In this document: one piece after another, positions 5,791 to 23,216 of the stretch
How positions within the stretch are numbered: the stretch's first letter is position 1
How the letters are laid out: each line of letters begins with the position of its first letter
Virus record (IMG/VR): IMGVR_UViG_3300045988_170323
Reading direction: 5' to 3' (one strand)
DNA: 34,880 bases
Origin: a virus
Notes under the pieces: model-generated
Database searches by the model: none
Seen by the model: only the letters and a program-made list of their open reading frames with translations
Told to the model about the DNA's origin: nothing
Position numbers and translations under genes: made by a program

Positions 5791-5815
5791 TCGTTATTGT
5801 CATTGTTAATATCAA

Positions 5816-7775: not shown

Positions 7776-7982
7776 ACATACCTCCTGTCTGAATTGTTGA
7801 AAGTTAAAATTGAAACAGCGATTTTGTGTCTGTATGCATATATATTATAAATATGTTACGCATACCCTGAAAAACTATAAAATCACTTTTTACATAATGC
7901 GCAAGGCAAATCTGGATTGTCGAGTTTTGCACCGGTATTTGTCAGAGCCAAAAATTTTTGCATTTTTTTACCCGGGGGTATT
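7776..7982. other. Non-coding gap between HNH and terS; candidate cos/packaging region
   Basis: 207 bp without an ORF. The GC-rich palindromic acccgggggt at 7970-7979 stands out in an AT-rich genome. Confidence 0.3.
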
Positions 7983-8330
7983 CTAATCCCACCGCTCTTC
8001 TGTCAATGGTGCCCGATAATTCTTTTGTCTATATCCATGCCTTTTTTCGTGACATTCGTGACACAAACTTATAAGGTTACGTTGTTCGCAGCCTTTATCA
8101 TCTATATACATAGCTTCAAGAGCCAACTCAGGATGATGCTTTACATAGTTAATATGATGTACTGTTGTTGCTTTGGTATATCTTCCAGCAGCTCTACAGT
8201 CAACACATTCATTGTGATCACGCTTAAGTATTTCTTTCCGGACTCTTAACCATTTGCTCCATATGTAAAAGCGATGCACTTCATTATTCTTTATGCACTC
8301 TTTTACATAATCAATATCATCCTGTATCAT
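7983..8330 (-). CDS. HNH endonuclease (terminase-associated)
   Basis: The motifs CVDC...HHINYVKHH...NLISLCHECHEKRH are present. The ATG at 8330 has a GAGAGGG RBS. Confidence 0.85.
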   Translation of the reverse strand: MIQDDIDYVKECIKNNEVHRFYIWSKWLRVRKEILKRDHNECVDCRAAGRYTKATTVHHINYVKHHPELALEAMYIDDKGCEQRNLISLCHECHEKRHGYRQKNYRAPLTEERWD

Positions 8331-8383
8331 ATTGCCCTCTCTATGCCTCACGTATATGTCATAGGTCTTACTGCTTTTATCTT

Positions 8384-8410
8384 AAAGAAAGAGCGCTATT
8401 TCTAGCGCTC
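8384..8410 (-). terminator. Rho-independent terminator after the late-activator gene
   Basis: Stem gagcgct/agcgctc followed by TTTCTTT on the minus strand. Confidence 0.5.
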
Positions 8411-8506
8411 AATGCATAAAAGATAGGATTCGATGCAGTATCGACTATATTAAAATAACACATATTAATGTGTACTGGTGTACACTCTTTTATTTTTTTA
8501 ATATTT

Positions 8507-8923
8507 TTATAACTGTACTGAATTAACAGCCCTTTTATAGCGCTTTATAAGTCCGCTGCGTGAATAGCCTTCTGCTTTCATAATGTCCTTCATATTCATA
8601 AGCTGTATGTGTCTAGCTATTAATATTCTCCTATCTGTTTCATCCTGGACTGTATTAATAACAGTAAGAACCTCTCTTGCCTTTGTAGCTGCTATCTCTT
8701 CCTCTCTTCTTAACTTGTTTATAAATTTCTTTGTTTCCTTATCAATCTTAATAACCCTGTCTGATAAATCGCTCTGGTTATGTGCTTTTGGCATATCAGA
8801 TATTTCTGGTGACGATAATCCATATAACGAATTAATAAAATCAATCTCAGTCTGATAGTTATTCATCCTTGATACATAATGCCTGTACATATCCAGATAT
8901 CTTTTTTTGTCTTCATCCCCCAT
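8507..8923 (-). CDS. ArpU/RinA-like late transcriptional activator (sigma-70 region-4-like HTH)
   Basis: SDMPKAHNQSDLSDRV...RRILIARHIQLMNMKDIMKAEGYSRSGLIKRYKRAV. It sits directly upstream of the packaging module. The ATG at 8923 has an AGGGTGAT RBS. Confidence 0.55.
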   Translation of the reverse strand: MGDEDKKRYLDMYRHYVSRMNNYQTEIDFINSLYGLSSPEISDMPKAHNQSDLSDRVIKIDKETKKFINKLRREEEIAATKAREVLTVINTVQDETDRRILIARHIQLMNMKDIMKAEGYSRSGLIKRYKRAVNSVQL

Positions 8924-9245
8924 CCTATCACCCTTTAATAAAGTATACATAATCCCTAAAAGTGTATAATTTTTTATAAGCCTTTAGAAATATTCTCAAA
9001 CCCTTGTTTCTTCTATGCTCTAATTATATTTCACTTTCATCATAATTACAAAAAGTATACCGTAAGTTGATAACTCGTTAATAACTCTGTTTTTTGTGGA
9101 TAAGTATTATCATCTGTACATAAAAAAAGCAGCTCTAAAAAGGCTGCTTGCTGTTAATTTTAAAAAAAATTTTTTTGTCTGTTATATCTTAATCAGAAAG
9201 AAAATCTAGTCTTTCTAAAAAATGAAAAAAGGAGATTTACAAATT

Positions 9246-9335
9246 ATGAATAATCTAATATTTGAAATTGTATTTAATTTGATACTTAATGTAGTATCTA
9301 ATTGTCTTTATGATATTTTCATAAAGCACAACTAA
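9246..9335 (+). CDS. Small hydrophobic peptide (29 aa, MNNLIFEIVFNLILNVVSNCLYDIFIKHN)
   Basis: AAAAGGAG RBS 7 nt upstream, with a 12-bp-stem hairpin immediately downstream. Confidence 0.35.
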   Translation: MNNLIFEIVFNLILNVVSNCLYDIFIKHN

Positions 9336-9352
9336 AGATAAAGATTATATGC

Positions 9353-9390
9353 GACAAGCTGCTCCTTTTATTATACAAGAGCAGCTTGTC
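9353..9390. terminator. Perfect 12-bp stem hairpin (gacaagctgctc / gagcagcttgtc)
   Basis: Read directly. It lies between the convergent small ORF and the recombinase gene. Confidence 0.5.
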
Positions 9391-9424
9391 ATTTATAATT
9401 CGCTTTTTTCTGTATATAACACAA

Positions 9425-10087
9425 TTATGATATCTTCTTATGCTTTCCTGGTCCTATATACATTTCCTTTCTATCGTGCTCTGCATCCTCACGTCCCCAT
9501 TGCACATACCTAAGAGTTACATCAGGTGAATCATGATTATACATCTTCATAAGTGTTAATACGTTGCCGCCATTCTTAATATATTGATATCCATAAGTCT
9601 TACGTAAACTATGCAATCCGAATGTATAAGGAATACCAATAGCTTCTCCGGCATTATGAATTATACGATATCCACGCTGCCTATTGATAGGATATATATA
9701 TGACCTGTCATTAAAATACTTCATCTGTCCTCGAAACAGATAATCATACAGACTTAGATTATACTTGCTTATATAATCAAGTATATCCTGGTGCAGCTGC
9801 TTATTCATACGGTAATTCTGCATCTTACCAGTCTTGTTTTCTTTAATCTGTATATATCCTTTAACAACATCAGCCACCCTGAGCTGCAGTAAATCTTCAG
9901 CTCGGAAAGCTGTATTAAGTCCGATGTGAAACAACATATAATCTCTGTCTGCCTGGTATCTCTTAACATCCGACTTTGCATTATTCTGCCTTTGCATAAA
10001 ATAGTTATATAACGCATCTATCTCTTTAGGATCCTTTATAGGTTGTGTTTCATGCTGCCCTGCAAAATACTTAATTCTTCTACCCAT
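9425..10087 (-). CDS. Small tyrosine recombinase (220 aa), essentially the catalytic domain only
   Basis: Catalytic residues R (AFRAEDL), H-x-x-R (HSLRKT), H (NHDS) and Y (TLRYV) are present. It has no N-terminal arm-binding domain and is preceded by a GGAGGT RBS. Confidence 0.85.
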   Translation of the reverse strand: MGRRIKYFAGQHETQPIKDPKEIDALYNYFMQRQNNAKSDVKRYQADRDYMLFHIGLNTAFRAEDLLQLRVADVVKGYIQIKENKTGKMQNYRMNKQLHQDILDYISKYNLSLYDYLFRGQMKYFNDRSYIYPINRQRGYRIIHNAGEAIGIPYTFGLHSLRKTYGYQYIKNGGNVLTLMKMYNHDSPDVTLRYVQWGREDAEHDRKEMYIGPGKHKKIS

Positions 10088-10140
10088 CTATTACTATGAC
10101 CTCCAAACATTATATTTTAGAAGCCGATACTGCATATTCA

Positions 10141-10341
10141 CTATAACACAATCTTTCCAGAAATGTACAATCTCATAAGCTCGGTTATGACTGATGCCTG
10201 ACTTTTACCATCATCCTCACACTTATCTGCGAATTCCTGTACAACATCTTTCTTAAGCTTATATGACTTAGACATATATCCTGCCTTGTCCTGGTACTTC
10301 TTAGATGCAACTGTCTGACTGTTTGGTTTTCCTACTGGCAT
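10141..10341 (-). CDS. Ribbon-helix-helix (CopG/Arc-like) DNA-binding protein
   Basis: 66 aa. KSYKLKKDVVQEFADKCEDDGKSQASVITELMRLYI fits a beta-alpha-alpha pattern. It lies 53 bp upstream of the recombinase on the same strand. Confidence 0.55.
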   Translation of the reverse strand: MPVGKPNSQTVASKKYQDKAGYMSKSYKLKKDVVQEFADKCEDDGKSQASVITELMRLYISGKIVL

Positions 10342-10509
10342 TTATCTTTCCTCTCTTTTTTACATACATATACGACTAACTTTGCAATACCTATTGCTAT
10401 AAAAAATATTCCTAACTTAAATAACATGCTTACCCCTTTCTATCTAGTTTAGATTGTGATATATTATCAATGGGATTAGGGCTTGCGCCCCATCCCTTAA
10501 TATTCTAAG

Positions 10510-10620
10510 TTAACTTAGAAGCTTGTCGATAATCAGAAGTATTATTCCGATTATCAAGTCCGTTAATGCTCCGATTAGCCAGGTCTTTGCATTATCGGAC
10601 TTTTCTTTTTTCTTCGACAT
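10510..10620 (-). CDS. Small membrane protein (36 aa, MSKKKEKSDNAKTWLIGALTDLIIGIILLIIDKLLS)
   Basis: Strong GGAGGTGA RBS, one predicted TM helix, and a GC-rich hairpin downstream (about 10473-10497). Confidence 0.5.
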   Translation of the reverse strand: MSKKKEKSDNAKTWLIGALTDLIIGIILLIIDKLLS

Positions 10621-10885
10621 GGGTATCACCTCCTTACAAGTATATATTAACATATGGTACACCCTATGTCAATAGTTCTATATAATATTTTTTTATTATT
10701 TTTAATATTTTATTTTAGAACTTTTCTCTCATAATTATTATATCAGTTGCAAGAGCATATCCGTACTCTCTGTTAGCTCCTGTAGACTTCTCCCAGCCTT
10801 TAAGCATATATATGTGTGAACACATACTTAACATCATCATAGACATCTGCATGTACTCCTCATAGCTTGTTGTATCTGCATATGA

Positions 10886-11032
10886 AAGTTCCCACTCTTC
10901 TTTCAGTTGCCTGATACTAAAGCTTTACGCAAAAATGTATCATTTCCTGCCTGGATGATTAACCTTGCTGATAAACGTGGTATTAACTGTTCCAAAGTCC
11001 TACAGGATGCCTTATTATCAATTTTTTTGTAG
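10886..11032 (+). pseudogene. Remnant of a HicB-type antitoxin C-terminus (no start codon, no N-terminal domain)
   Basis: My translation ...DTKALRKNVSFPAWMINLADKRGINCSKVLQDALLSIFL* resembles the HicB C-terminal RHH tail. The open frame begins right after a TGA. Confidence 0.4.
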
Positions 11033-11043
11033 ATTCATATGTT

Positions 11044-11067
11044 TACCGGGGAATAAAATCCCCGGTA
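11044..11067. terminator. Bidirectional hairpin terminator (taccgggga ataaaa tccccggta)
   Basis: 9-bp stem between convergent coding regions. Confidence 0.55.
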
Positions 11068-11100
11068 TTTGTATATCTAGTTTTCATATCAGTCATTCTA

Positions 11101-11835
11101 CTAAGAAATGACTGTAAACTGTGGATACTCCTCAAGCTCTCTCATCAAATAATCCTTAATTCTCTGTGTTGCCTCAACCTTCCATGCTCCACCATCAGCT
11201 TCAAAAATTGCACATAATATTCCGTCATACTTATCTGCTTTCATTCTGAATACAAAGTCTGATGCAGGCTGTTCAACCTCTAAGAATGTCCTATAAGGTG
11301 TAAGCTTCACCGGATTAGGTACAATAGCATCTGACTTTGATGCAATACCAGTCTTTACAGTAGCTTTCTGTGTTACACCATCATCACCATATTCTGTTAC
11401 AGTACCATCTTCAACAGTACCAGCAAATTGGAGTACTAACGCCCTGTCACCTTCATCCAGGAACTTAGACTGTAAACCTATGCAGAAATTCTCCTGACTA
11501 ATATAATGGTCATAATTAAAAACAGGTGTCTGTAACAATACATCAACAAGATATTCTCTTTTCCTGTTATCATCAAGCTGGCTATATAACTTCACCTCGT
11601 CTGGACTTGTAACCTCAACAATCATCTTTTCAGACATTGTATCAATATTGCCCTTGATATAATCTAAGAGACTTGTAAGCGTATGCATAGTAATCACCTC
11701 TGCCTTAGGAATATGCTTCTCAAGCAACTGTAAGTCCCTATCTGAATATGTCTGTATAGTTCCATCTGGAAGCTGCACATCCTGTACCTCTGCTCTGCTT
11801 AACCCAATTATGTACTGTAATGCCTCTTTAATCAT
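11101..11835 (-). CDS. Hypothetical phage early protein (about 244 aa)
   Basis: Long ORF. The ATG at 11835 has AGGTGA upstream; the GTG at 11844 is an alternative. Confidence 0.6.
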   Translation of the reverse strand: MIKEALQYIIGLSRAEVQDVQLPDGTIQTYSDRDLQLLEKHIPKAEVITMHTLTSLLDYIKGNIDTMSEKMIVEVTSPDEVKLYSQLDDNRKREYLVDVLLQTPVFNYDHYISQENFCIGLQSKFLDEGDRALVLQFAGTVEDGTVTEYGDDGVTQKATVKTGIASKSDAIVPNPVKLTPYRTFLEVEQPASDFVFRMKADKYDGILCAIFEADGGAWKVEATQRIKDYLMRELEEYPQFTVIS

Positions 11836-11854
11836 CTTTTTCACCTAACCCTTT

Positions 11855-12265
11855 CTAAGCCTGTCTTGTTTTTCTAAAATCCACAACCGAACTATTATCT
11901 GTTTTAACATCTGCTGCCTGTGTTTCACCTTTACCATCATCCGTCTTTAAATCACCCATAGACATTTGTCCTGGAATCTGCTTGCCATACTCTGTAGCAT
12001 ATAACTCTCCTGTTCTAAGGTCTTTACCAATCGAAAATGCTGTTTTCATAGGTGCCTGTGGTGCAAGCTTCTCAACAACATTAATCTTTACCGCCACATC
12101 ATCTCTTAGTTCATTCTGTGTAAACTCAAGAGATATTGTTATCTTTCTCTTATCCCTGGAAGATGTATTAACATCCTGTAGATTATCAATAATTCTCTCA
12201 AAGGATTTATTAAACTTCTCCTGTAATGCACCACCCAATATGCCCTGTAACTCTATTGTGTTCAT
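11855..12265 (-). CDS. Hypothetical early protein; weak recollection of the family annotated 'phage replication terminator protein'
   Basis: 136 aa. The pattern RKITISLEFTQ...VAVKINVVEKLAP is present. The family name rests on memory only. Confidence 0.35.
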   Translation of the reverse strand: MNTIELQGILGGALQEKFNKSFERIIDNLQDVNTSSRDKRKITISLEFTQNELRDDVAVKINVVEKLAPQAPMKTAFSIGKDLRTGELYATEYGKQIPGQMSMGDLKTDDGKGETQAADVKTDNSSVVDFRKTRQA

Positions 12266-12346
12266 ACGTTCAATTCCTTTCCACTATCTCCGGTTATAAA
12301 AATAATTGTGATATTATAATCAACCAGTATTCAGCTATGTAGATAG

Positions 12347-12568
12347 TTATGTAGTAATATTTATCCTTCTATCAGCTTCTAACATAAGCTCACCTATCTG
12401 ATCCGCATCCATTTCCACTAAAAGGATTTTTAACATCATCAGATATCTAAGTGTTCTGATGCGCAATCTGTAGTGCTCATTATCCGTAGTATTAAGCTTC
12501 TGTGCCTTAACTGTCTGATGAGCATATTTTTTAATACATCTATTAATCTCTTTAATCTCTCTATGCAT
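12347..12568 (-). CDS. Hypothetical protein (73 aa)
   Basis: ATGA start/stop overlap with the upstream gene. Confidence 0.5.
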   Translation of the reverse strand: MHREIKEINRCIKKYAHQTVKAQKLNTTDNEHYRLRIRTLRYLMMLKILLVEMDADQIGELMLEADRRINITT

Positions 12569-13176
12569 CAGCCTGTCTCCTTTGAATTATCAAGAAGCAA
12601 ATTATAAAAACTCTCATCTCTTTTTTCACGCTGCTCAAAATTATTAAATTTGTTACGCGCGTGCGCGCTATATATACTTTTATTTACTTTACTTTTCTTT
12701 GTTGCATTATTGTCAACATTAACCCTAGTTTCTGCAACATTAACCTCGGTTTCTGCAACATTTACTACATTTGAGGGTGACTTTAATAAAAGGTATGCAT
12801 TCTCCAAAAAAATTTTTGAACGACGTTTTAATGCTTCGGCATAGCGTTCCTGAATTCCTCTGCTTGTCAGGATCTGATACTTGTCGTACATTTCTTTTGA
12901 AAAGATACCTCTGTTCAGTGCCGTATTTACCACTGAACTTATAAAATTTGTCTTGTAATTAATGTCACCATCCATGACGATTTTAGTTGCAAACAGAATA
13001 AGTGAATCCTTATCCCACTTCATGTAATACCCTTCTTCTCCGTATATAGTCTGAAAAAGGCGTACTATGATACCAAAGCCAGCTATTCCATGCTCAGCTT
13101 CCAGTAATTGAAACTTCTGGTCAAGATTGCAGTCTAAAGGAAAGTAATCAAGATTACTCTTAACTGGTCTTGCCAT
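12568..13176 (-). CDS. DUF4373 (Lin1244/Lin1753-like) replication organiser-type protein
   Basis: The N-terminus MARPVKSNLDYFPLDCNLDQKFQLLEAEHGIAGFGIIVRLFQTIYGEEGYY matches the family signature. Confidence 0.65.
   Translation of the reverse strand: MARPVKSNLDYFPLDCNLDQKFQLLEAEHGIAGFGIIVRLFQTIYGEEGYYMKWDKDSLILFATKIVMDGDINYKTNFISSVVNTALNRGIFSKEMYDKYQILTSRGIQERYAEALKRRSKIFLENAYLLLKSPSNVVNVAETEVNVAETRVNVDNNATKKSKVNKSIYSAHARNKFNNFEQREKRDESFYNLLLDNSKETG
12723..12780. repeat. About 2.5 direct repeats of 21 bp (caacattaaccYYRgtttctg) inside the DUF4373 gene; candidate origin iterons
   Basis: Repeat starts at 12723, 12744 and 12765. The repeats encode NVAETEVNVAETRVNV. Confidence 0.45.
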
Positions 13177-13187
13177 AAAATATGCTC

Positions 13188-14210
13188 CTATCTTTTAAGG
13201 TACTTAGCCATAATATCTCTCTTTGACTGAGGTTCTGCTCTTGGCATAGCTCCAGGCGACTTCTTTACAAAATCAAAGTCATCCTTAAGCTCCTGTCTGC
13301 TCACAGTAGTATTGTTAATAATAATATCCTTACCGGATAATACATCATTATGTATCTCATCCAGTCTTGATAAAGGATAATTAAGTCCTGCAAGCATAAG
13401 AATACAGTCATTATCAGTATAAGTCCTGAATTCATCGTAAGGAACGCCTACAGCCTTATGTAGCTCTTCAAAACTGCTAATGCTCTCATCTGCTGCCAGT
13501 GCAATATACTTAACCTTATCGCCTTCAATCGTAGCATATATATCGCTAAAAATGCTCTTGGCTAAAGCAGCCATATTAGTATTTCCTGCACTATAAATAC
13601 AACTCATACCATGTGTTAATAAAGTTTCTTTAATCTCAGCATCATCGATGTTACCTCGCTGTGAAGAATAGTTATCAGGAATATGTACATAATTGTCAAA
13701 CATCTGGACAAATCTGTTATTAATATAAAACTTATCTGCCTTAGAATTATCAAGGATAAACAGAGATGCCATCTTATCAAGACTAAGCAGCTCTCTGAAG
13801 CACTCATAAGAATTATACTTAGTCTTTATAGACTCATCTGAAGTTGGAAGAATTGTAACAGCTCCTACCTTTCTGTTTTCATCCAGCATAAGATCAATCA
13901 GCATAGGACCTGTACCAGAACCAGTACCTCCACCGGATGAAAACACAACAAACAATATCTCGCAGTCCATAACCTTATCAACCATAGCTGCTATATTATC
14001 ATAGTCATCTATTACAAGCTTCTTAGCTTTATCCCTGTCCTTATTAGCACCTTCGCCATTTGTTATGTGATATACATACTTACTATCCTTCAATGTGTTA
14101 AGGTCTTCCTTGGACGTATTAATATACATCGCCGGATAACCTTCCTGTTCAAAGAGCTGGACTATATTGCCTCCGACCTGTCCTACTCCTATAAAACCAA
14201 TGTCTTTCAT
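13188..14210 (-). CDS. tubZ: TubZ-like tubulin/FtsZ-superfamily GTPase
   Basis: The motifs GVGQVGGNI (T1-like loop) and SSGGGTGSGTGP (tubulin signature GGGTGSG) are present, with a basic C-terminal tail ...SKRDIMAKYLKR. An ATGA overlap couples it to the upstream winged-helix gene. Confidence 0.8.
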   Translation of the reverse strand: MKDIGFIGVGQVGGNIVQLFEQEGYPAMYINTSKEDLNTLKDSKYVYHITNGEGANKDRDKAKKLVIDDYDNIAAMVDKVMDCEILFVVFSSGGGTGSGTGPMLIDLMLDENRKVGAVTILPTSDESIKTKYNSYECFRELLSLDKMASLFILDNSKADKFYINNRFVQMFDNYVHIPDNYSSQRGNIDDAEIKETLLTHGMSCIYSAGNTNMAALAKSIFSDIYATIEGDKVKYIALAADESISSFEELHKAVGVPYDEFRTYTDNDCILMLAGLNYPLSRLDEIHNDVLSGKDIIINNTTVSRQELKDDFDFVKKSPGAMPRAEPQSKRDIMAKYLKR

Positions 14211-14461
14211 ACTTCAAATTCTCCTATCTTTTCTAAACCAGTCTTGCTAATACTATATGTGTTAGCATGTCCATCTTTAAGACCATGCTGTATAAACCCA
14301 GCTTCTAAAAGCTTCTGTACACTCTTATAAAGCGTATTAGTTCTATAACCTGCAAGTCCATCCGTAGATACAAGTTCCTGTAATGACATTGCCGTGGCAT
14401 TTCCAAACGCTTTATTTTCCCTAAGCATAAGCAAAATTAATAATTCTTTTTTATCCATCAT
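14207..14461 (-). CDS. tubR: TubR-like winged-helix centromere-binding protein
   Basis: About 84 aa. The gene lies immediately downstream of the iterons and is translationally coupled to tubZ. The track start (TTG 14479) lies inside the repeat array, so the ATG at 14461 is preferred. Confidence 0.6.
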   Translation of the reverse strand: MMDKKELLILLMLRENKAFGNATAMSLQELVSTDGLAGYRTNTLYKSVQKLLEAGFIQHGLKDGHANTYSISKTGLEKIGEFEV

Positions 14462-14476
14462 TACCTGCTTTCTTGT

Positions 14477-14580
14477 CAATTTGGATTTTTTCTTACCAAT
14501 TTGGATTTATTTTTATTAACTTGGATTTTTTCTTACTAATTTGGATTTATTTTTATTAATTTGGATTTTTTCTTACCCAA
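14477..14580. promoter_or_regulatory. tubC-like centromere: five TTGGATTT boxes on an exact 20-bp period (a 40-bp unit repeated 2.5 times)
   Basis: Boxes start at 14481, 14501, 14521, 14541 and 14561. They alternate between ttggattttttcttac and ttggatttatttttatta. Confidence 0.65.
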
Positions 14581-14589
14581 TTAATTCCA

Positions 14590-14874
14590 TCAGTAATAAA
14601 TTCTTGCCCCTGCAGCATTCTTTTCCAGCAACTGCGCTGTAATATTTTCCCATTCACTCTTGAACTTCTTAATCCATAATTTTTCAGGTAAACAAATAAT
14701 CGCATATCTGTTGCGAAAAGTTGCTTCTTCAGAAGCTAACATCAGCAGTCTGCCTACACTTACCTTGTATTTATCCGCCAGATATTCTACAGACTTCTCA
14801 TAATCAATAATATCTCCAGTCACTATATCAACTATGCTGAATAACCTCTTATCCTTATTAGACACATCCTTCAT
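14590..14874 (-). CDS. Hypothetical protein (94 aa)
   Basis: ORF in the early operon. Confidence 0.5.
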   Translation of the reverse strand: MKDVSNKDKRLFSIVDIVTGDIIDYEKSVEYLADKYKVSVGRLLMLASEEATFRNRYAIICLPEKLWIKKFKSEWENITAQLLEKNAAGARIYY

Positions 14875-14886
14875 CTCCTTTCCACA

Positions 14887-15117
14887 CTATTGAATGTCGC
14901 CTATGCCAGGAACAAATATGTTATGCCAATGGATAGCTCCGCCACAGGTGCCGCAGAAACTAAGATTCCACACACGCTGCACATTATATCCACAATAAGG
15001 ACATATTCCATATATAACACCCTTATGATCATTGTAATAAGGCTCCCTGACCTGCATATGCTCCACTCCATCAATGTTTAATAATTCATTCTTTGTTGCA
15101 GCAAATTCATATTCCAT
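14887..15117 (-). CDS. Zinc-ribbon protein (76 aa)
   Basis: CPYC...CGTC pairs of cysteines; GAAGGAG RBS. Confidence 0.55.
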   Translation of the reverse strand: MEYEFAATKNELLNIDGVEHMQVREPYYNDHKGVIYGICPYCGYNVQRVWNLSFCGTCGGAIHWHNIFVPGIGDIQ

Positions 15118-15148
15118 ACATAACTCCTTCTGAATGCTGCAGCGAACC

Positions 15149-15259
15149 CTAAATAAAAAGACCTAGTAAAATAAGCCCATAAAAGCAGCCTGCCATAATA
15201 GCAGCTCCGGATAAATCCTTTGCAACTGCTTTCACACTATTTAATTTTTTGTTGTTCAT
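15149..15259 (-). CDS. Small membrane protein (36 aa, MNNKKLNSVKAVAKDLSGAAIMAGCFYGLILLGLFI)
   Basis: My own translation. It is not in the ORF track because it is shorter than 60 aa. Confidence 0.35.
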   Translation of the reverse strand: MNNKKLNSVKAVAKDLSGAAIMAGCFYGLILLGLFI

Positions 15260-15432
15260 AGTATTTGCATTCCTTTCTAAAATGTGTTATTATAATTATG
15301 TTGTTTATAGGTGTTTGCACCTGAGGGACAGTGCTTGTCACTGTCCTTTTTTTATTACCTTATTAGCTGTTCAGGGCTATATTTCTCTATAGTATCATGG
15401 TAAAAGCTTCCTACTCCTTCATCATGTACCAT

Positions 15433-15666
15433 CTATGTATCCTTTTTCCTTATCTCTTCAAGAGTTCTTGCTAACTCCTCTGTTGTCATACCTTGTCGCT
15501 TAGCCAGTGCCGCTGCACTTATGTTATAAGTCCAGATAGAGGACATCTTTATAGCATTACCAATATCTAATATTCCTCTCTGCATCCCAATTCTGACAAA
15601 CTGTGGACTACATCCCATTATTACAGCTGCTTCCGCTGTCTTAATTCTTTTAATATTTGGCATCAT
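15433..15666 (-). CDS. HTH DNA-binding protein (excisionase/MerR-like HTH_17 type)
   Basis: MMPNIKRIKTAEAAVIMGCSPQFVRIGMQRG. The ATGATG at 15666 has an AGAGGTGA RBS. Confidence 0.5.
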   Translation of the reverse strand: MMPNIKRIKTAEAAVIMGCSPQFVRIGMQRGILDIGNAIKMSSIWTYNISAAALAKRQGMTTEELARTLEEIRKKDT

Positions 15667-15775
15667 CTTCACCTCTTTATGCATTTTCCTCTGACATACG
15701 GATCACATCCGCTACATCTTCCTGTGTCATCTTAAGTGGAATGTGTTACAATAAATAAAAAACTTGGAGGTGCTT

Positions 15776-16117
15776 ATGAATAACTTTGAAAATATAAATC
15801 TTACATTAACTGAAAAATACAAATTATTTATCATGCGATTCATAAAACACGCCAATGATAAATTCCTCGGTAAAGATTCTGAATATCTGCTTGAAATCGA
15901 ATTTATTGAACCAGATCTTGCAGCATCAAATTCAGAATTGATTCCTTATACTTTCGCAGGTACATATCATCTCACGCAAAAATACAAACGCTATTGCATA
16001 CACTGCAGAAAAATATTTGTAAGAGGAATGTTCTCATCTTTCATAACACCCATAGTTGTATCCATAATCACATCAATACTAACAGTACTAGTATTACGAT
16101 TATTAGGATTACAATAA
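15776..16117 (+). CDS. Membrane-anchored protein (113 aa, C-terminal TM helix), encoded opposite to the surrounding operon
   Basis: GGAGGTG RBS before the ATG at 15776. The hydrophobic tail reads FITPIVVSIITSILTVLVLRLLGL. Confidence 0.55.
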   Translation: MNNFENINLTLTEKYKLFIMRFIKHANDKFLGKDSEYLLEIEFIEPDLAASNSELIPYTFAGTYHLTQKYKRYCIHCRKIFVRGMFSSFITPIVVSIITSILTVLVLRLLGLQ

Positions 16118-16244
16118 TAATCTTGTACACATTTTCCCTTTTATGTACATAAACAAACAATGCCATCTCATCATCTGATAAATGGTTAAATTCCTGAAAA
16201 CTTTTCAGTCTTTCTGCTTTTAATTTCTTTTTCTCTTTATTCAT
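16068..16244 (-). CDS. Hypothetical small protein; its 3' end overlaps the convergent + strand gene by 50 nt
   Basis: AAGGTGG RBS before the ATG at 16244. The hydrophobic tail may be a shadow of the opposite-strand TM helix. Confidence 0.35.
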   Translation of the reverse strand: MNKEKKKLKAERLKSFQEFNHLSDDEMALFVYVHKRENVYKIIIVILIIVILVLLVLM

Positions 16245-16285
16245 CAGAACCACCTTGAATTTTTTCTTTTCTCACGTCATTGTCC

Positions 16286-16558
16286 TTAGTCCAATGCCTT
16301 TAATATCTGCTGTAGCTGCAGCTCCATATCTCTTAAAAACTCAGCGTTACTGACTGCGTTCTTAAACTTCGGCTCGCCATTCTCATCCGTCTCCTGCGCC
16401 AGCTCTTCCCACACCTTGAGTCTTTCTTCTCTGTTGTGCGTATCACTTAAGATATAGAACTGTAATATATGCCATAACCTGTTAGTAAGCGTTACTGTTT
16501 TCGGCTGCTGCTCCCAGCTTGTAGCCTCTGCACTGTCGTTGTCTCTTTTCTTTGCCAT
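16286..16558 (-). CDS. Hypothetical protein (90 aa)
   Basis: GGAGGT RBS. Confidence 0.55.
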   Translation of the reverse strand: MAKKRDNDSAEATSWEQQPKTVTLTNRLWHILQFYILSDTHNREERLKVWEELAQETDENGEPKFKNAVSNAEFLRDMELQLQQILKALD

Positions 16559-16670
16559 TCCTTCGTTACCTCCTCTGTTGAAAATAAATAACCTTGCCTA
16601 TTTTCTTCCTAACTCTTATACTTTAATTACTGGTGTCTCAGCACCTAGTTTCCAAGAAAGGAGATTATTT

Positions 16671-17066
16671 ATGCCTAAAGTTGATTTAACTGTTACAATT
16701 TCTGTTATTATTGCTATCTGTGCTATCATTTCCCCGATTATCACTACGATTTTAATCAATCGCCATCTTTATAAAATACGTAAATTAGATGAAGCTGCAC
16801 AACTTCGAAAAGAAACTTACTTTTATAAACGTGGTATCTATGAAGATTATTTACGATATACTGGTCAATGTATTACACATGCTACTGTTGAAACTCTTGA
16901 TAATTATGGTGCTACATATGCTCTTGCACTCATATATTTTCCAGAAGATTTACAAAGCAAAATAATTGATTTGAATAATGCAATTAATCATGGTACGAAA
17001 GATAATGCTTTAAAAAAGCTTAATAAGCTTGCACCATTAATCCGTATGCAACTACAAGATTTGTAA
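16671..17066 (+). CDS. N-terminally membrane-anchored protein (131 aa), opposite orientation to its neighbours
   Basis: AAGGAG RBS before the ATG at 16671: MPKVDLTVTISVIIAICAIISPIITTILINRHLY. The track's upstream extension from 16539 has no RBS. Confidence 0.55.
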   Translation: MPKVDLTVTISVIIAICAIISPIITTILINRHLYKIRKLDEAAQLRKETYFYKRGIYEDYLRYTGQCITHATVETLDNYGATYALALIYFPEDLQSKIIDLNNAINHGTKDNALKKLNKLAPLIRMQLQDL

Positions 17067-17072
17067 TTGCAA

Positions 17073-17306
17073 TCACAATTCATCATTTAGTAACTCCCAA
17101 TCATCCGCAACCAAATCCGCTTGTGTAGGGTTCCAACATCTGCATGAGCGGGTTTCATCCTCTTTAAACACAATCAGTTTGCACCTTTCATAAGAATTAG
17201 TTGGTTGTACAGCTCCAAACACGGTATCCGACTTTGATATGATGCTTTTTCTTACCATTAGCCTTCCTTGCTCTGCTGCCAACTTTGCGGCTTCGCTTAT
17301 GTACAT
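17073..17306 (-). CDS. DUF2829-like small protein (the family that contains Thoeris anti-defence Tad2)
   Basis: The C-terminal CWNPTQADLVADDWELL resembles the family's W-x-P-x(3)-DLLAxDWE motif. The N-terminal ISEAAKLAAEQGRLMVRK also fits. Confidence 0.45.
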   Translation of the reverse strand: MYISEAAKLAAEQGRLMVRKSIISKSDTVFGAVQPTNSYERCKLIVFKEDETRSCRCWNPTQADLVADDWELLNDEL

Positions 17307-17370
17307 CTCTTACACCTCCTCTGTTTAAAATAAATAACACCATTGGCTATTGTTGTTATTTTCGCAACTT

Positions 17371-17583
17371 TTATTTTAAAAAAATTTGGTAGCCAATATT
17401 ATGTTTATCTTCAATTTTTTCCACTTCGCTTATGTAAAAATCCGAATATCCATTTACCTTTGCACCAACTGATGTTTCGGATATATTCAACGTTTTTGCT
17501 ATATCAGCATAAGTTAATCCGCGTTCTCTAAGTATTCCTTTAAACTTGTTATATGGTGCATGGATTATTTTTCTTTTACCCAT
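17371..17583 (-). CDS. Cro-like XRE-family HTH regulator
   Basis: MGKRKIIHAPYNKFKGILRERGLTYADIAKTLNISETSVGAKVNG. It has a GGAGGTGA RBS and is divergent from the repressor gene. Confidence 0.7.
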   Translation of the reverse strand: MGKRKIIHAPYNKFKGILRERGLTYADIAKTLNISETSVGAKVNGYSDFYISEVEKIEDKHNIGYQIFLK

Positions 17584-17599
17584 TTTGTTATCACCTCCC

Positions 17600-17751
17600 T
17601 GTTTCGTTTGCAATAACAAAATATCATACCAATGTTGCGTTGTCAATAACTTTTATTAAAAATATTATTGTTTGCAATAACTTTTCTTATTTTTAGCTTG
17701 TGTTTTCTTATGGCATATGATAACATTTTATTATAGAAAGGAGGTGCACAA
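17600..17751. promoter_or_regulatory. Divergent lysis-lysogeny switch region with three operator-like boxes TTG(T)CAATAAC
   Basis: tttgcaataac occurs at 17607-17617 and 17671-17681, and gttgtcaataac at 17639-17650. Two of the boxes continue as caataactttt. Confidence 0.55.
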
Positions 17752-18375
17752 GTGTTTGGAAAAAGACTTAAACAGATTAGAAAAGAACAGGGTTACACTC
17801 TTGACTCCTTAGCAAATGAATACAATAAAATATTTGATGCCGGATTAAATAAAGGAACCTTATCTAAATATGAAAATGAAAAACAAGAACCGATGATTTC
17901 AGTAGTTAATAATTTAGCAACATTGTTAAATATAAATACTGATTATTTACTTGGTAAAACTGATAATCCCAATAAAGAAAAAGGCATTCGCATACCAGTC
18001 CTTGGTTCAGTACCTGCTGGCGTTCCTATTGATGCCATAGAAGATATTATTGATTATGAAGAGATTGACTCCGTTACTGCCTCCAAAGGTGAATATTTTG
18101 GATTAAAAGTTAAAGGCAGCTCTATGGAACCAAGAATATGCGAAGGTGATATTCTTATCGTTAAACGCCAGGATGATTGCGAATCAGGAGATATTGCCAT
18201 CGTAATGGTTAATGGTAACGATGCAACTGTAAAACGCCTAATGAAATATGCCGATGGTATCCGGTTAATACCTAATAACCCAGCATATGAACCAATATAC
18301 TTTACTAACGAGGAAATTATAAGAAAACCAGTTAAAATAATTGGTAAGGTAATAGAGAACAGACAGAAATATTAA
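17752..18375 (+). CDS. CI/LexA-like repressor (XRE HTH plus S24 peptidase)
   Basis: An N-terminal HTH is followed by GSSMEP...VKRL (Ser/Lys dyad context). GTG start after AAAGGAGGTG. Confidence 0.85.
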   Translation: MFGKRLKQIRKEQGYTLDSLANEYNKIFDAGLNKGTLSKYENEKQEPMISVVNNLATLLNINTDYLLGKTDNPNKEKGIRIPVLGSVPAGVPIDAIEDIIDYEEIDSVTASKGEYFGLKVKGSSMEPRICEGDILIVKRQDDCESGDIAIVMVNGNDATVKRLMKYADGIRLIPNNPAYEPIYFTNEEIIRKPVKIIGKVIENRQKY

Positions 18376-18393
18376 ATTTAAGGGGATATAATT

Positions 18394-19707
18394 ATGAGAG
18401 AACAAAAAGGTACTAATTTATTAATTTTTCCAAACGATTATACAGTTATTGATATCGAAACAACTGGTTTATCACCAGAATATGATGAAATAATTGAAGT
18501 GTGTGCATTAAAATATCGAAGCAAAAAAATGATAGATAAATATACTACATTAGTAAAACCTGAATATCCTGTTGACGAATATATTACATTTTTAACAGGT
18601 ATCACTAATGATATGTTATCATCTGCTCCATCTCTTAAAGATATTATACATACATTATATAATTTTATTGGAAATGATATTATAGTTGGTCATTCTGTCA
18701 ATTTTGATATCAACTTTATATATGATGCTTGCAATCAATATTTATCCGAACCTCTTACCAATGATTTTGTTGATACTTTAAGACTTGCAAGACTATTACA
18801 TAATGAAGAACATAATAGATTAAAAGACTTATGTATAAAATACAATTTATCATATGATAATGCACATAGAGCTGAATTTGATTGTTTAGTCACCAATGAG
18901 ATATTGTCTATATTTAACAATGAATTTATTGAAAATTATGGAGAAAATGAAACAATTAGTAACATATTTAGAAGATATGAAAATGGCAAATTAATTCCAA
19001 TAAAAGCCGCAGATATTTCAACGGATAAAACTGAATTTGATATAGATAATCCTATTTATGGAAAAACTGTTGTATTTACTGGTGCTTTAGAGAAAATGGT
19101 TAGAAAAGATGCTATGCAAATGGTTGCTGATTATGGTGGTATAAATGGTGATAATGTAACAAAAAACACTAATTATTTAGTACTTGGCAATAATGACTAT
19201 CACAATTCAATTAAAAATGGTAAAAGTAGTAAACAAAAAAAGGCAGAAAATTATAAACTTAAGGGATATGACATTGAAATAATACCAGAAAATGTATTTT
19301 ATGATATGGTTGATATTCCATCATCTGAGCCTGTTCCCACATATAACAATGACAATATATATAAACAGAGCTTATCGCTTAGTGATAGAGAAATATCTGT
19401 CATAGATGTTGTTAAATCATATCTTTCAACTTCACCTGACTTTTCTGCTTTTGGAGTAGACGTTAGAAGTGACAACTATATAACCTTGTTGTGCGGAAAT
19501 AACGATTTTATGAGGTTTAAATACTCTCCTCGCGTTTTTTGGATATCCTTAAGATTACCTTATGATGTAGCAAAAGCAAACATTGATAATCCCTTATTTG
19601 CAGCTCAACAAAATAAAAAACAAGCTCATTGGAAAGCCGCTTTAACATCTTTTGAAGAAATAGAAAAATTAAAGGATTTTATTATATTATCATTTATTAA
19701 TGATTAA
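18394..19707 (+). CDS. DEDDh (DnaQ-like) 3'-5' exonuclease, BRCT domain and an unknown 130-aa C-terminal domain
   Basis: ExoI is VIDIETTGL..DEIIE, ExoII is GHSVNFDINFI and ExoIII is HRAEFDCLVT. The BRCT-like stretch is GKTVVFTGALEKMVRKDAMQMVADYGGINGDNVTKNTNYLVLG. Confidence 0.75.
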   Translation: MREQKGTNLLIFPNDYTVIDIETTGLSPEYDEIIEVCALKYRSKKMIDKYTTLVKPEYPVDEYITFLTGITNDMLSSAPSLKDIIHTLYNFIGNDIIVGHSVNFDINFIYDACNQYLSEPLTNDFVDTLRLARLLHNEEHNRLKDLCIKYNLSYDNAHRAEFDCLVTNEILSIFNNEFIENYGENETISNIFRRYENGKLIPIKAADISTDKTEFDIDNPIYGKTVVFTGALEKMVRKDAMQMVADYGGINGDNVTKNTNYLVLGNNDYHNSIKNGKSSKQKKAENYKLKGYDIEIIPENVFYDMVDIPSSEPVPTYNNDNIYKQSLSLSDREISVIDVVKSYLSTSPDFSAFGVDVRSDNYITLLCGNNDFMRFKYSPRVFWISLRLPYDVAKANIDNPLFAAQQNKKQAHWKAALTSFEEIEKLKDFIILSFIND

Positions 19708-19718
19708 ACTTTTCTACA

Positions 19719-19858
19719 ATGAAATATGCCGATGATATTCGGTTAATACCTAATAATCTAATCAGGCATACAAACCAATGTACTTTACCAATAAAGAAAT
19801 TATAAGCAAACCAGCTAAAACAATTGGTAAGGTAATAGAAAACAGACAGAAATATTAA
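19719..19858 (+). pseudogene. Degenerate second copy of the 3' end of the repressor gene (compare 18241-18375)
   Basis: atgaaatatgccgatg(g/a)tat(c/t)cggttaatacctaataa...attggtaaggtaatagaRaacagacagaaatattaa aligns by eye. The second copy carries indels and mismatches. Confidence 0.8.
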
Positions 19859-19878
19859 TTAACTTAACATAATAATAT

Positions 19879-20730
19879 ATGGAGGTACTTAACTTGAGCT
19901 TACCAATAGATAAAGACATTGTTATAAAACATAAAAAGAATGCAATAAAAGAATTGAATAATCTTTTTGAACACTACATAAACGAACCATCTGGAAAATA
20001 TTTAAAAAAAGCCAATCTATTAGCCTATTGGTTCGAAACATATGTTAAATATATCAGAAATGAAGAACGTTATGATCCTAAAAAGCAAATTCGTTATAAC
20101 AGAGGTGACGTTATAAAAGTTAACTTTGGATTTAACATTGGAAAAGAATATGGTGGCTTACATTATGCAATAGTCCTTGACAAAAACAATCACTTAAGTG
20201 CTAATGTCGTAACTGTTGTTCCTCTTACATCTGGAACAGAATCTGAAACTTATAATACGGATGTGTATCTAGGTTCTGAACTTTTTAGCAAATTAGATGC
20301 ACGACATGCCTATATGCTTGAAAAAGCCCATAAGGATTTAGATGAATGTAGTAAAATAAAAGATTCCATTGATTCTACTAATTCTGTCATTGAAAAAATA
20401 ATTTCTAATGACACCAATTCTCAAAGTGAATATGATGACGAAATTGCTGCAACTTTAGCTGATAACTTAAGCATACTAACAGATAAACATAGTGAATTCA
20501 CACAAAAAATCGAACAAACAAATCAGGATATACAATTCCTTGAAAAAAGCCGACAAGAAATAGCAAAGCTAAAATCTGGAAGTATAGCTTTAATTGGTCA
20601 GATAACTACAATTGATAAATCCAGAATATACACACCAAGAAAATCAACAGATGTATTATATGGTATTAAATTTTCTGATGAAAAAATGAATGCTATAAAT
20701 GAAGCAATAAAAGCAAAAATCATCTTTTAA
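19879..20730 (+). CDS. MazF/PemK-fold protein with an N-terminal extension and a roughly 100-aa coiled-coil insertion
   Basis: RGDVIKVNFGFNIGKEYGGLHYAIVLDKNN...VVTVVPLTS is the N-half of the fold. After the coiled-coil insert, GSIALIGQITTIDKSRI...MNAINEAIKAKI is the C-half. The TTG at 19894 after GGAGGT is an alternative start. Confidence 0.6.
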   Translation: MEVLNLSLPIDKDIVIKHKKNAIKELNNLFEHYINEPSGKYLKKANLLAYWFETYVKYIRNEERYDPKKQIRYNRGDVIKVNFGFNIGKEYGGLHYAIVLDKNNHLSANVVTVVPLTSGTESETYNTDVYLGSELFSKLDARHAYMLEKAHKDLDECSKIKDSIDSTNSVIEKIISNDTNSQSEYDDEIAATLADNLSILTDKHSEFTQKIEQTNQDIQFLEKSRQEIAKLKSGSIALIGQITTIDKSRIYTPRKSTDVLYGIKFSDEKMNAINEAIKAKIIF

Positions 20731-20784
20731 GTTTAATTACGTTTAAATGCATTTATTTTAGTACATACAATTTTAAAATTTATA

Positions 20785-20813
20785 TTGACTGTGATGGTTT
20801 TTCATAATATAAT
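20785..20813 (+). promoter_or_regulatory. Consensus sigma-70-type promoter (TTGACT, 17 nt spacer, TATAAT)
   Basis: Read directly: ttgact gtgatggtttttcataa tataat. Confidence 0.6.
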
Positions 20814-20819
20814 AATTGA

Positions 20820-22905: not shown

Positions 22906-22944
22906 ACAGACTGCTGATTATCACATACTGCAGTCTGTTTTTTG
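22906..22944 (+). terminator. Rho-independent terminator after int
   Basis: Stem acagactgc / gcagtctgt followed by a T-run. Confidence 0.6.
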
Positions 22945-22998
22945 TTAGTTATGTGTTAGTTACGTCTGTTAGTTACCTGTTAGTTACTTGTTAGTTAC
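22943..22998. repeat. Five tandem TGTTAGTTA(C/T) boxes at 11-13 bp spacing; candidate integrase arm-type sites
   Basis: Box starts at 22943, 22954, 22967, 22978 and 22989. Confidence 0.6.
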
Positions 22999-23060
22999 GT
23001 CTATAAATTCACGTTATTTCATACATTTTCAAAACATTTTTATTTTAATTGTATATAATA

Positions 23061-23096
23061 CAAAAACCGCCGCAATCCCAGTGATTACGGCGGTTT
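23061..23096 (-). terminator. Rho-independent terminator reading on the minus strand
   Basis: Stem aaccgccg / cggcggtt, followed on the minus strand by TTTTTG. Confidence 0.55.
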
Positions 23097-23120
23097 AACG
23101 CATTTAACTTATTAAATTAA

Positions 23121-23183
23121 TTAGAACTTACCTTCATCAGCAGCCTGCTGTACAGAAACAGCAAGTTGCTTATTTACTGGTAT
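23121..23183 (-). other. Startless 20-codon open frame (IPVNKQLAVSVQQAADEGKF*) followed by a terminator; possible host-gene 3'-end mimic in the attP core
   Basis: My own translation. It is bounded upstream by a TAA and lies between two groups of TGTTAGTTAC boxes. Confidence 0.3.
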
Positions 23184-23195
23184 TTAGCATAATAT

Positions 23196-23216
23196 TGTTA
23201 GTTACGTGCTAATTAC
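23196..23216. repeat. Additional TGTTAGTTAC box plus a degenerate tgctaattac box (candidate second arm of attP)
   Basis: tgttagttacgtgctaattac read directly. Confidence 0.45.

Follow-up and report, generated by a model that had tools for sequence, protein, structure and literature searches.

A TubZRC-like cassette next to a phage replication initiator gene

Phage tubulins are so far known in two settings, the partition system of the 186-kb plasmid prophage c-st and the PhuZ spindle of jumbo phages. Here we analyzed the IMG/VR viral record IMGVR_UViG_3300045988_170323 (34,880 nucleotides, referred to as the window), for which an original prediction, made from the letters alone, had proposed a complete tubulin-based (type III) partition locus, tubC-tubR-tubZ, at positions 13188-14580. 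The window ends in an exact 99-bp direct repeat (1-99 and 34782-34880) that represents assembler overlap, and the genome is a closed circle of 34,781 bp. On its minus strand, in the direction of the genes, lie an array of short direct repeats (iterons) resembling a tubC centromere, the putative adaptor gene tubR, and tubZ, whose start codon overlaps the stop codon of tubR as ATGA, followed by a gene for a replication initiator (Table 1). Nearly all of the predicted layout proved correct: five boxes with an exact 20-bp period precede a winged-helix gene of about 84 amino acids (aa), and the overlapping 340-aa protein carries the tubulin motifs GVGQVGGNI and GGGTGSGTGP as well as a basic C-terminal tail. 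The identity of the locus as tubC-tubR-tubZ is backed by Pfam, by sequences in the PDB, by the predicted fold and by iterons found across the family. Of the coordinates given for the boxes (14481-14576), the start is right while the end was approximate, as the last box ends at 14568.

TubZ and TubR are closest to the proteins of phage c-st

The 340-aa protein matches the Pfam families Tubulin (E 2.4e-17) and TubZ_C_3 (E 9e-10), both above their gathering scores. Compared with the sequences of PDB entries it is closest to TubZ of c-st (4xcq and 3v3t, E 6e-35 and 5e-34), with 30% identity over 302 aa, followed by CetZ (4e-10) and then the FtsZs; TubZ of Bacillus (4ei7) and PhuZ of phage Goslar (9pm9) are found at E 1e-5 and 1.1e-5, respectively. 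The AF2 model, computed with 40 family members (predicted local distance difference test (pLDDT) 85, predicted template modelling score (pTM) 0.85), likewise has c-st TubZ at Foldseek ranks 1-2 (E 1.5e-26, template modelling (TM) score 0.87, target-normalised), with CetZ (8e-19), Bacillus TubZ, FtsZ and PhuZ behind it, and it predicts a disordered linker (residues 302-327) followed by a terminal helix (residues 330-338). The motifs expected of a tubulin-like GTPase are in place: GVGQVGGNI forms the T1 loop (residues 8-16), GGGTGSGTGP (residues 93-102) includes the T4 loop GGGTGSG (residues 93-99), and both nucleotide-binding loops are invariant or nearly so in the family alignment. The T7 motif N187-x-D189-x-x-E192 aligns with GVVDEDE of c-st and is likewise (nearly) invariant in 37-40 sequences. 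The protein ends in the basic sequence ...PRAEPQSKRDIMAKYLKR and has a conserved C-terminal helix, SKRDIMAKYLKR, with a terminal motif (...S-x-RD-I-M-x-KYL) that is conserved across the clade and common to c-st. Catalytic and tail residues remain invariant among proteins that are just 40% identical.

Along with partition, the original prediction had raised the alternative that the tubulin might be put to another use, such as positioning phage DNA during infection in the manner of PhuZ. The first half of this suggestion, a use during infection, fits the evidence, as set out below, whereas the PhuZ model does not. A PhuZ-like protein would act independently of a centromere, either as a spindle that centres the phage factory or the capsids or by manipulating the host cytoskeleton so as to block FtsZ-driven division. 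The general fold does resemble PhuZ and FtsZ (Foldseek ranks 13-50), and there is a match to phrog_4733, 'tubulin PhuZ', but this match is weak and confined to the N-terminal part (E 2.9e-14, residues 3-141 only), as against E 4.9e-35 over residues 4-280 for phrog_17961. By sequence and by fold c-st TubZ is far closer (ranks 1-2, compared to rank 16 for PhuZ of Goslar and rank 49 for PhiKZ TubZ), which places the protein outside the PhuZ subgroup. The PhuZ proteins of 201phi2-1, PhiKZ and Goslar are, like the protein studied here, phage GTPases with a tubulin fold, and they act in lytic growth, where they improve replication; however, they come without adaptor or centromere and belong to genomes of more than 200 kb that build a phage nucleus. 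Their tail is acidic and used in polymerisation, while the TubZ tail in the window is basic and matches that of c-st. Since, in addition, TubZ is accompanied across the family by a conserved dedicated adaptor gene and centromere-like array, and the 34,781-bp genome holds the ordinary genes of an HK97-type siphovirus and none of a jumbo phage, we consider a PhuZ-like function highly improbable.

For the 84-aa protein (annotated in relatives from the next ATG and thus with 83 aa), the only significant match among PDB sequences is 6tey, TubR of phage c-st, which aligns end to end at E 1.5e-6; a phmmer search of the window with the c-st protein CST190 in turn recovers it at E 1.8e-9. Its AF2 model (pLDDT 85), which rests on a shallow alignment of 7 close relatives from a word-indexed database, shows an H-H-H-wing-H topology (H, helix) and has 6tey as its top Foldseek match, although at an E value (2.7e-3) that is weak and typical for any small winged helix-turn-helix protein. 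Taken together, sequence and model identify the protein as a predicted TubR of the c-st type. Both proteins of the cassette have their best match, in sequence as in predicted fold, in c-st.

The ratio of nonsynonymous to synonymous substitution rates (dN/dS) amounts to 0.06-0.14 for tubZ, indicating purifying selection, and to 0.06-0.2 for tubR, in comparisons that include integrated copies; synonymous divergence (dS) of tubZ and tubR ranges from 0.25 to 2.1, with the most divergent tubZ pair (that with locus L010; L numbers denote individual loci throughout) being saturated. These values bear on the possibility that the cassette is a functionless, decaying remnant of a plasmid-prophage ancestor, as might be supposed given that integration makes partition superfluous for the upkeep of a prophage. 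Both genes are intact in every relative, at dN/dS of 0.06-0.2, their catalytic and tail residues do not vary, the iterons are maintained and co-evolve with TubR, and the clade comprises 136 clusters at 50% identity (E <= 1e-30, 1.84 billion representatives). The selection data effectively refute a remnant. On the grounds of homology and of the co-variation of iterons with TubR described below, the locus very likely encodes a working machine of the TubZRC type.

The iterons form a single array and co-vary with TubR

The 8-bp box TTGGATTT recurs without mismatch on the plus strand with a period of exactly 20 bp, and only one further copy lies elsewhere in the 34.9-kb window. Tandem Repeats Finder describes the array as 5.3 copies with period 20 (14469-14575) and, at a higher score, as 2.5 copies with period 40 (14481-14582, 93% matches). 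Because the period-40 fit scores above the period-20 fit, the 40-bp pair is taken as the true repeat unit, made up of two alternating, slightly different 20-bp iterons. The conserved core exceeds the box and extends over about 12 bp, AAWTTGGATTTW, from which each of the five copies departs at one position at most. The array stops 8 nucleotides short of the ribosome-binding region of tubR, and iterons occupy the whole of the 128-bp gap that separates tubR from an upstream open reading frame (ORF) of 94 aa (stop at 14590), which itself has no family match.

Whereas a split centromere is stated to be common to the type III systems studied (PMC6009700), the window contains one block: the 12-bp core at 0-1 mismatch clusters nowhere else in the window, where its total matches stay below the shuffle expectation, and the repeat scan of the window showed no other repeat family near the array. 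No sigma-70-like promoter was recognised in the 128-bp gap at 9 of 12 consensus matches, which is a weak negative considering the crude scan and the AT-rich DNA. The only good -35 element seen by eye, TTGACA at 14480-14475, was discarded as part of a tubR promoter, as the start codon is too near.

In close relatives the array is kept while its sequence turns over and its copy number varies, one relative having 3 boxes compared to 5 in the window. A lineage with a TubR of about 50% identity carries boxes AATCAGAG/TATCCAAG at a 10-bp period, and in another lineage of close relatives AAATCAGAATTG alternates with TCCAAATT. At L004, a TubR identical to that of the window is combined with the other type of iteron, that of L010, in which ATCAGAA and TCCAAAT alternate. 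This points to a recombination breakpoint between the array and tubR, and judging from such a natural mismatch, TubR may accept either iteron core.

Taking one genome per GTDB species, we collected 49 loci with a TubZ 31-60% identical to that of the window, most of them from Lachnospiraceae. A TubR homologue lies directly upstream of TubZ in about 32 of the 43 loci tested, and most of the genome loci examined carry 6-10 iterons of the consensus WATCAGAGWW, or variants of it, at a 10-bp period immediately upstream of tubR. Wherever the gene after tubZ could be identified, it almost always encodes a phage replication initiator (Phage_rep_org_N, Lin1244_N or a D5-like primase-helicase), and close relatives keep the entire block tubC-tubR-tubZ-initiator-orf73. 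TAAGAG iterons are common to L122, which has a Lin1244_N initiator, and to L123 and L124, which have a D5-like primase-helicase. Iteron sequence therefore tracks the TubR subtype and not the initiator type, which argues that the repeats are binding sites of TubR and not of the initiator.

This co-variation counts against a regulatory reading, according to which the iterons would be a replication origin or copy-control element, TubR an iteron-binding repressor or handcuffing protein, and TubZ a replication accessory like RepX of pXO1. The location of the iterons, abutting the tubR ribosome-binding site and preceding an operon that ends in the initiator, would suit such a function, as would the tight linkage of tubRZ to initiator genes across the family. 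Moreover, PDB entry 4ei7, a Bacillus TubZ, bears the name 'plasmid replication protein RepX', and the minimal replicon of pBtoxis and of pXO1 was originally described as tubRZ plus its iterons. Yet iterons acting as Rep-binding origin repeats can be set aside as the main reading, since the repeats follow TubR and not the initiator family, and a separate candidate origin exists inside the initiator gene, namely two tandem 21-bp direct repeats CAACATTAACCYNRGTTTCTG (12714-12755), which encode a repeated VNVAET peptide. TubZ also retains T1, T4, the T7 catalytic residue and the predicted adaptor-binding tail, none of which a purely regulatory role needs. We regard this reading as improbable, although it is largely compatible with the explanation favoured below.

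Table 1. Location of the cassette and of other features in the window.
Feature	Position	Strand	Description
tubC-like centromere or operator	14469..14582	-	five 20-bp iterons, single contiguous block
Boxes	14481-88, 14501-08, 14521-28, 14541-48, 14561-68		core on the gene strand (-) WAAATCCAAWTT
tubR	14207..14461	-	84-aa predicted winged-helix DNA-binding adaptor; 84 aa from first ATG
tubZ	13188..14210	-	340-aa tubulin/FtsZ-fold GTPase (fold predicted)
Replication initiator, Lin1244_N, 202 aa	12568..13176	-	12 bp downstream of tubZ, same orientation
orf73, 73 aa	12347..12568	-	after the initiator in all close relatives (L010-L013, L077-L085); no family match
Small tyrosine recombinase, 220 aa	9425..10087	-	catalytic domain only; between replication and packaging/late modules
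Divergent promoter-like pair	17618..17668	.	between CI-like repressor and minus-strand cro-like/early genes
CI-like repressor	17752-18375	+	HTH (helix-turn-helix) + Peptidase_S24
PemK/MazF-like protein	19879-20730	+	283-aa MazF/PemK-like fusion
Tyrosine integrase, 356 aa	21823..22893	+	Pfam Phage_integrase E 1.7e-12
attP	22943..23204	+	arm repeats TGTTAGTTA: five at 22943-22997, one at 23196; core ends 23164

The phage integrates into the chromosome of its host

Judged by its genes, the phage is a complete temperate siphovirus of the SOS type from human-gut Lachnospira. The late genes encode an HNH endonuclease, a P27-type small terminase and a large terminase, a combination that argues for cos-type packaging, as well as portal, ClpP-type protease, HK97-type capsid, major tail protein, tape measure, Dit and endolysin. 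On the plus strand lies a lysogeny block consisting of an HTH-S24 (LexA/CI-like) repressor, a DEDDh exonuclease-BRCT protein, a MazF/PemK-like protein and the tyrosine integrase. A megablast search with 25 kb of the window found no match among 50,697 GenBank phage records.

As the original prediction had it, the integrase is full-length and accompanied by attP-like arm repeats. Five of these flank the core on one side and a single one lies on the other; six copies of TGTTAGTTA were reached in 0 of 100 shuffles. The att core includes about 45 bp that constitute the 3' end of a host GGGtGRT gene, named in the sources as belonging to Lachnospira pectinoschiza or '[Lactobacillus] rogosae'. A tRNA gene as att site was discarded, as the window contains no tRNAs (nor any structured RNA with an Rfam match at gathering score). 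Integration itself can be read from a 75.5-kb scaffold of a Human Microbiome Project (HMP) sample that encodes both an identical TubZ and an identical integrase: about 230 bp after the integrase it continues with host genes for the GGGtGRT protein, a chemotaxis receptor, GlmS, topoisomerase and Asd. Window positions 3188-23164 are 100.000% identical to this scaffold over 19,977 bp, and the homology ends at 23164, inside the 3' end of the host gene. The identical integrase protein adjoins the host junction in contigs of 53-403 kb, attL junctions are present in many independent metagenome contigs of the same size range, and six of the eight contigs shown (53-403 kb) combine this junction with tubR-tubZ-rep. 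Position 23120 of the window is where several independent contigs stop. As a lysogen, this phage is integrated.

A 48.8-kb IMG/VR contig (L001/L022) was rejected as a further integrated copy, since beyond the att core it continues with a different lysis/tail module and not with host genes; in L022, the stretch of host gene within attP is about 40 bp longer. The att locus is common to several unrelated phages with an identical integrase (L076, L081), and a TubZ-bearing relative (L010, TubZ 66% identical) occupies it with a different integrase of 405 aa. L076 and L081 combine the same integrase and att site with other replication modules and lack tubRZ, which indicates that the cassette travels with the replication module and not with the lysogeny module.

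Members of the wider family, those of 40-50% identity among them, mostly sit on contigs of chromosomal size, well beyond that of a phage, as well: 26 of the 49 loci are on contigs of more than 60 kb, at least 18 of them on more than 100 kb, and two on complete Anaerocolumna chromosomes of 6.4 and 6.8 Mb. Among the 72,556 plasmids of PLSDB there is no relative above 32% identity, the matches being plasmid prophages of C. botulinum/novyi and Priestia plasmids, and tblastn of TubZ against GenBank phages yielded Bacillus phage G, c-st and D-1873 and nothing else, with identities of about 30%. In a separate group of elements (L135-L137), which carry a TubR-TubZ pair of the same clade (P0051-type TubZ, 47% identical), integration is by a large serine recombinase. 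These elements have T2SSE/T2SSF (Tad/type IV pilus-like) genes and a 1,331-aa Flg_new protein but no tailed-phage genes, so the cassette is not confined to tailed phages; the contigs around them reach 208 kb, and 99 blocks of the collection list the protein.

From the presence of both an integrase and a partition locus, the original prediction had suggested a dual lifestyle as either an episomal phage-plasmid or an integrated prophage. In this scenario the phage would, besides integrating, persist over many generations as a low-copy circular episome, for example in hosts without a free attB or in a carrier or pseudolysogenic state, with Rep replicating it, TubZRC partitioning it and the small recombinase resolving multimers. 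Some observations are in keeping with this: the window closes into a circle that contains an attP junction, the initiator adjoins the cassette, the Xer-like small recombinase often co-occurs, and the closest studied homologue, c-st, is a plasmid prophage (PMC6009700). An occupied attB is plausible where several phages (L010, L076, L081) contest one att locus, and the frequent contig breaks at the att core are consistent with mixed junction forms in the sample. By gene content, the phage also has what phage-plasmids encode, namely an initiator and genes for an active partition system, but it is found integrated, unlike the autonomous prophages of P1, N15 and c-st.

Both forms of the DNA were found, a circular assembly and, for the identical phage, host junctions, yet an attP-bearing circular assembly is expected from any induced temperate phage. 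All long contigs with the phage or its close relatives show integration, family members on complete genomes are chromosomal, and none of the PLSDB plasmids carries a close relative. Furthermore, the cassette is part of the early/replication operon, which runs opposite to the lysogeny module, and has no recognised promoter of its own. In cluster A mycobacteriophages, parABS replaces the integrase and is not known to stand alongside it. The proposed dual lifestyle is thus not established, and we think a facultative plasmid unlikely, though it is the main rival to the explanation favoured below.

A possible role during the extrachromosomal phase

The position of the cassette relative to the lysis-lysogeny switch is informative in this respect. 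Within the 5.6 kb scanned for promoters (12400-18000), the best sigma-70-like sites are a divergent pair beside the repressor, TTGACA-17-TATTTT with TG on the minus strand and TTGTCA-17-TATTAT on the plus strand, together with operator-like direct repeats at 17639-17689. tubRZ lies about 3 kb downstream of this switch on its early (minus) side, on the opposite strand to the repressor-integrase module. Since the prophage is kept by integration, while the cassette is located on the early strand upstream of the initiator, it would be expected to act in the extrachromosomal phase. The explanation we favour, at a probability of roughly 0.55 and judging from the context of the genes, is that the cassette moves the extrachromosomal, replicating phage genome after infection or induction, and does not serve the maintenance of a plasmid prophage.

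By homology to known systems, TubR would coat the iteron array, whose 20-bp spacing corresponds to two helical turns, so that all boxes would face the same side of the DNA. GTP-bound TubZ would polymerise into dynamic filaments, and its basic tail would capture the TubR-tubC complex, allowing the filament to drag the phage DNA through the cell. Judging from its context, the cassette would act only while the genome is extrachromosomal and the early genes are on. Replicating circles might thereby be positioned or dispersed, which could aid replication or deliver copies to both daughter cells before integration or lysis. As the array abuts the tubR ribosome-binding site, the TubR-iteron complex probably also throttles the expression of tubR, tubZ and rep.

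Several points count against such a replicative-phase role. The closed circle of the window is also what a plasmid state would give. The cassette, the adjacent initiator and the small Xer-like recombinase make up the toolkit of a plasmid prophage, and c-st and phiCD38-2 each have an Xer-like recombinase (Table 1 of PMC8026635). c-st, the sole close homologue that has been studied, is interpreted as plasmid partition. A weak, TubR-regulated promoter within the iterons may be active in lysogens, and the need for active DNA transport in a 35-kb phage with a presumably short cycle is not obvious.

On a wider scale, TubR-TubZ-iteron cassettes might be a standard, hitherto overlooked option for the replication module of small integrating temperate Lachnospiraceae phages and for at least one further class of integrative elements in these hosts, where they would provide cytoskeletal aid to extrachromosomal replication and distribution of the genome upon infection or induction; we put this forward tentatively, at slightly less than even odds. 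If true, it would add a third biological use of phage tubulins to plasmid-prophage partition in c-st and the PhuZ spindle, and active DNA transport would matter even for 35-kb phages. The finding of a minimal two-protein cassette in the 35-kb siphovirus of a common gut commensal, in an arrangement that recurs in dozens of Lachnospiraceae genomes, challenges the view in which cytoskeletal systems of phages are the preserve of plasmid prophages and jumbo phages. A replicative-phase role would offer a small, tractable model of how tubulin filaments act on a phage genome, and it would make 'partition' genes an unreliable marker when phage-plasmids are predicted from sequence. Should the phage turn out to be a facultative plasmid, it would be a clear example of integration combined with tubulin-driven episomal inheritance. 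In either case, the natural co-variation of TubR and iterons (ATCCAAA, ATCAGAG and TAAGAG cores, with 10- or 20-bp phasing) is useful for decoding how TubR recognises its centromere.

Comparison with known partition and cytoskeletal systems

The closest solved relative of both proteins is the TubZRC(Y) system of c-st (CST190 TubR, CST189 TubZ, tubC/tubS and CST188 TubY). It is likewise phage-borne, has the same order of iterons, tubR and tubZ, and shares a flexible TubZ tail with a related terminal motif as well as a short TubR (81-84 aa) lacking the additional helices that Bacillus TubRs have at both termini (PMC6009700). The two differ in that c-st is a 186-kb plasmid prophage, whereas the phage in the window has 34.8 kb and integrates. 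The tubC of c-st consists of two separate blocks (TTGAC and A/TGAA iterons) within a non-coding region of about 500 bp that has its own predicted promoter (PMC6009700); in the window a contiguous array of 100 bp fills a gap of 128 bp, in which the crude scan recognised no promoter. tubR and tubZ are 18 bp apart in c-st instead of overlapping, and the gene after tubZ is TubY (MerR-type) instead of a replication initiator.

TubY, a protein with a MerR-type HTH and a coiled coil, is present in every characterised type III system (PMC7762940). When c-st TubY was compared by phmmer with every ORF of 40 aa or more, taken from all six frames of the circularised window, nothing was found at E <= 10, and the 202-aa gene downstream of tubZ was rejected as a TubY candidate, being a replication initiator (Pfam Lin1244_N, E 3.9e-26; phrog_2562 and phrog_20437, 'replication initiation', E 4e-54) and not a MerR protein. 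Calling the locus complete was in this respect an overstatement. As far as can be judged from sequence, a c-st-type TubZRC that lacks TubY, has a single-block centromere and is joined to a phage replication module in an integrating siphovirus is a new arrangement. In the literature (the c-st paper of Oliva et al. 2012 not covered) we found no account of TubZRC in integrating small phages or in Lachnospiraceae.

The TubZRC systems of Bacillus virulence plasmids (pBtoxis, pXO1 with RepX, pBc10987 and pBsph) are of like architecture and presumably of like mechanism (PMC6009700, PMC7762940). There, the winged-helix adaptor binds direct repeats upstream of tubR and the complex auto-represses the operon, while the treadmilling tubulin-like GTPase captures the adaptor via its C-terminal tail (PMC6009700, PMC7762940). 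Their TubZ is far more distant from that of the window than c-st TubZ, with a fold TM score of about 0.6-0.7, 14-17% identity and about 380-410 residues in the solved chains. They also differ in having a dimeric TubR and TubY and in residing on large low-copy plasmids.

The closest functional analogue is found outside the tubulins, in the actin-like AlpA/AlpC system of the integrated Corynebacterium glutamicum prophage CGP3 (PMC4446434). The adaptor AlpA is encoded upstream of AlpC in one operon and binds repeats upstream of this operon (PMC4446434). Both are induced early, and without them replication of the excised circle falls two-fold, while they are not required for lysogenic maintenance (PMC4446434). 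The context of the cassette in the window agrees with this logic. AlpC has an actin fold and no homology to TubZ, however, and CGP3 is large and cryptic, in contrast to the phage described here, which by its genes looks fully competent; the CGP3 study draws the general conclusion that reliance on cytoskeletal filaments is a feature of large-genome phages (PMC4446434).

Integrative conjugative elements (ICEs) provide a further parallel, in that they integrate and yet carry co-located replication and partition genes, as exemplified by srpMRC of SXT/R391, and these genes are thought to stabilise the excised, replicating form (PMC5587801). Such elements are conjugative, whereas the element in the window is viral, and in a survey of 200 ICEs the partition systems were of type I or II, with no type III system among them (PMC5587801).

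Neighbouring genes and further observations

The second small recombinase noted in the original prediction and the toxin-like cargo, the PemK/MazF-like protein, were both recovered. The recombinase matches Pfam Phage_integrase (E 2.5e-17) and phrog_216 (E 6e-42), and its gene is followed by an inverted repeat with 21-bp arms (9344-9399). Homologues are encoded 4-10.6 kb downstream of tubZ in 21 of the 49 genome loci. The protein may be an Xer-like multimer resolvase working with the replication/partition module, or else a mere marker of the lineage. The segment 11101-12265 on the minus strand encodes a 247-aa phrog_1029 protein with no assigned function and a 136-aa phrog_997 protein labelled 'replication terminator'; this pair co-occurs with the TubZ cassette in about 24 of the 49 genome loci, on either side of it.

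The slot between repressor and integrase (18394-20730, plus strand) constitutes a variable cargo or defence hotspot, occupied here by the 437-aa DEDDh exonuclease-BRCT protein and the 283-aa MazF/PemK-like fusion. Relatives (L011, L076, L080, L135-L137) carry Abi_2, SIR2_2, RloB with an AAA ATPase, ParE/Phd or RelB/PIN in the same slot.

Two small genes of the early region on the minus strand deserve mention. At 15151-15261, a conserved ORF encodes a hydrophobic 36-aa peptide, MNNKKLNSVKAVAKDLSGAAIMAGCFYGLILLGLFI, and a gene of 36 aa is called at the same position in relatives; it is preceded by a hairpin with an 11-bp stem (15323-15349) that is terminator-like on the opposite strand only. A 77-aa early protein encoded at 17073-17306 matches phrog_643, and as its relatives are labelled Tad2-like (Pfam PF11195), it is a candidate anti-Thoeris sponge.

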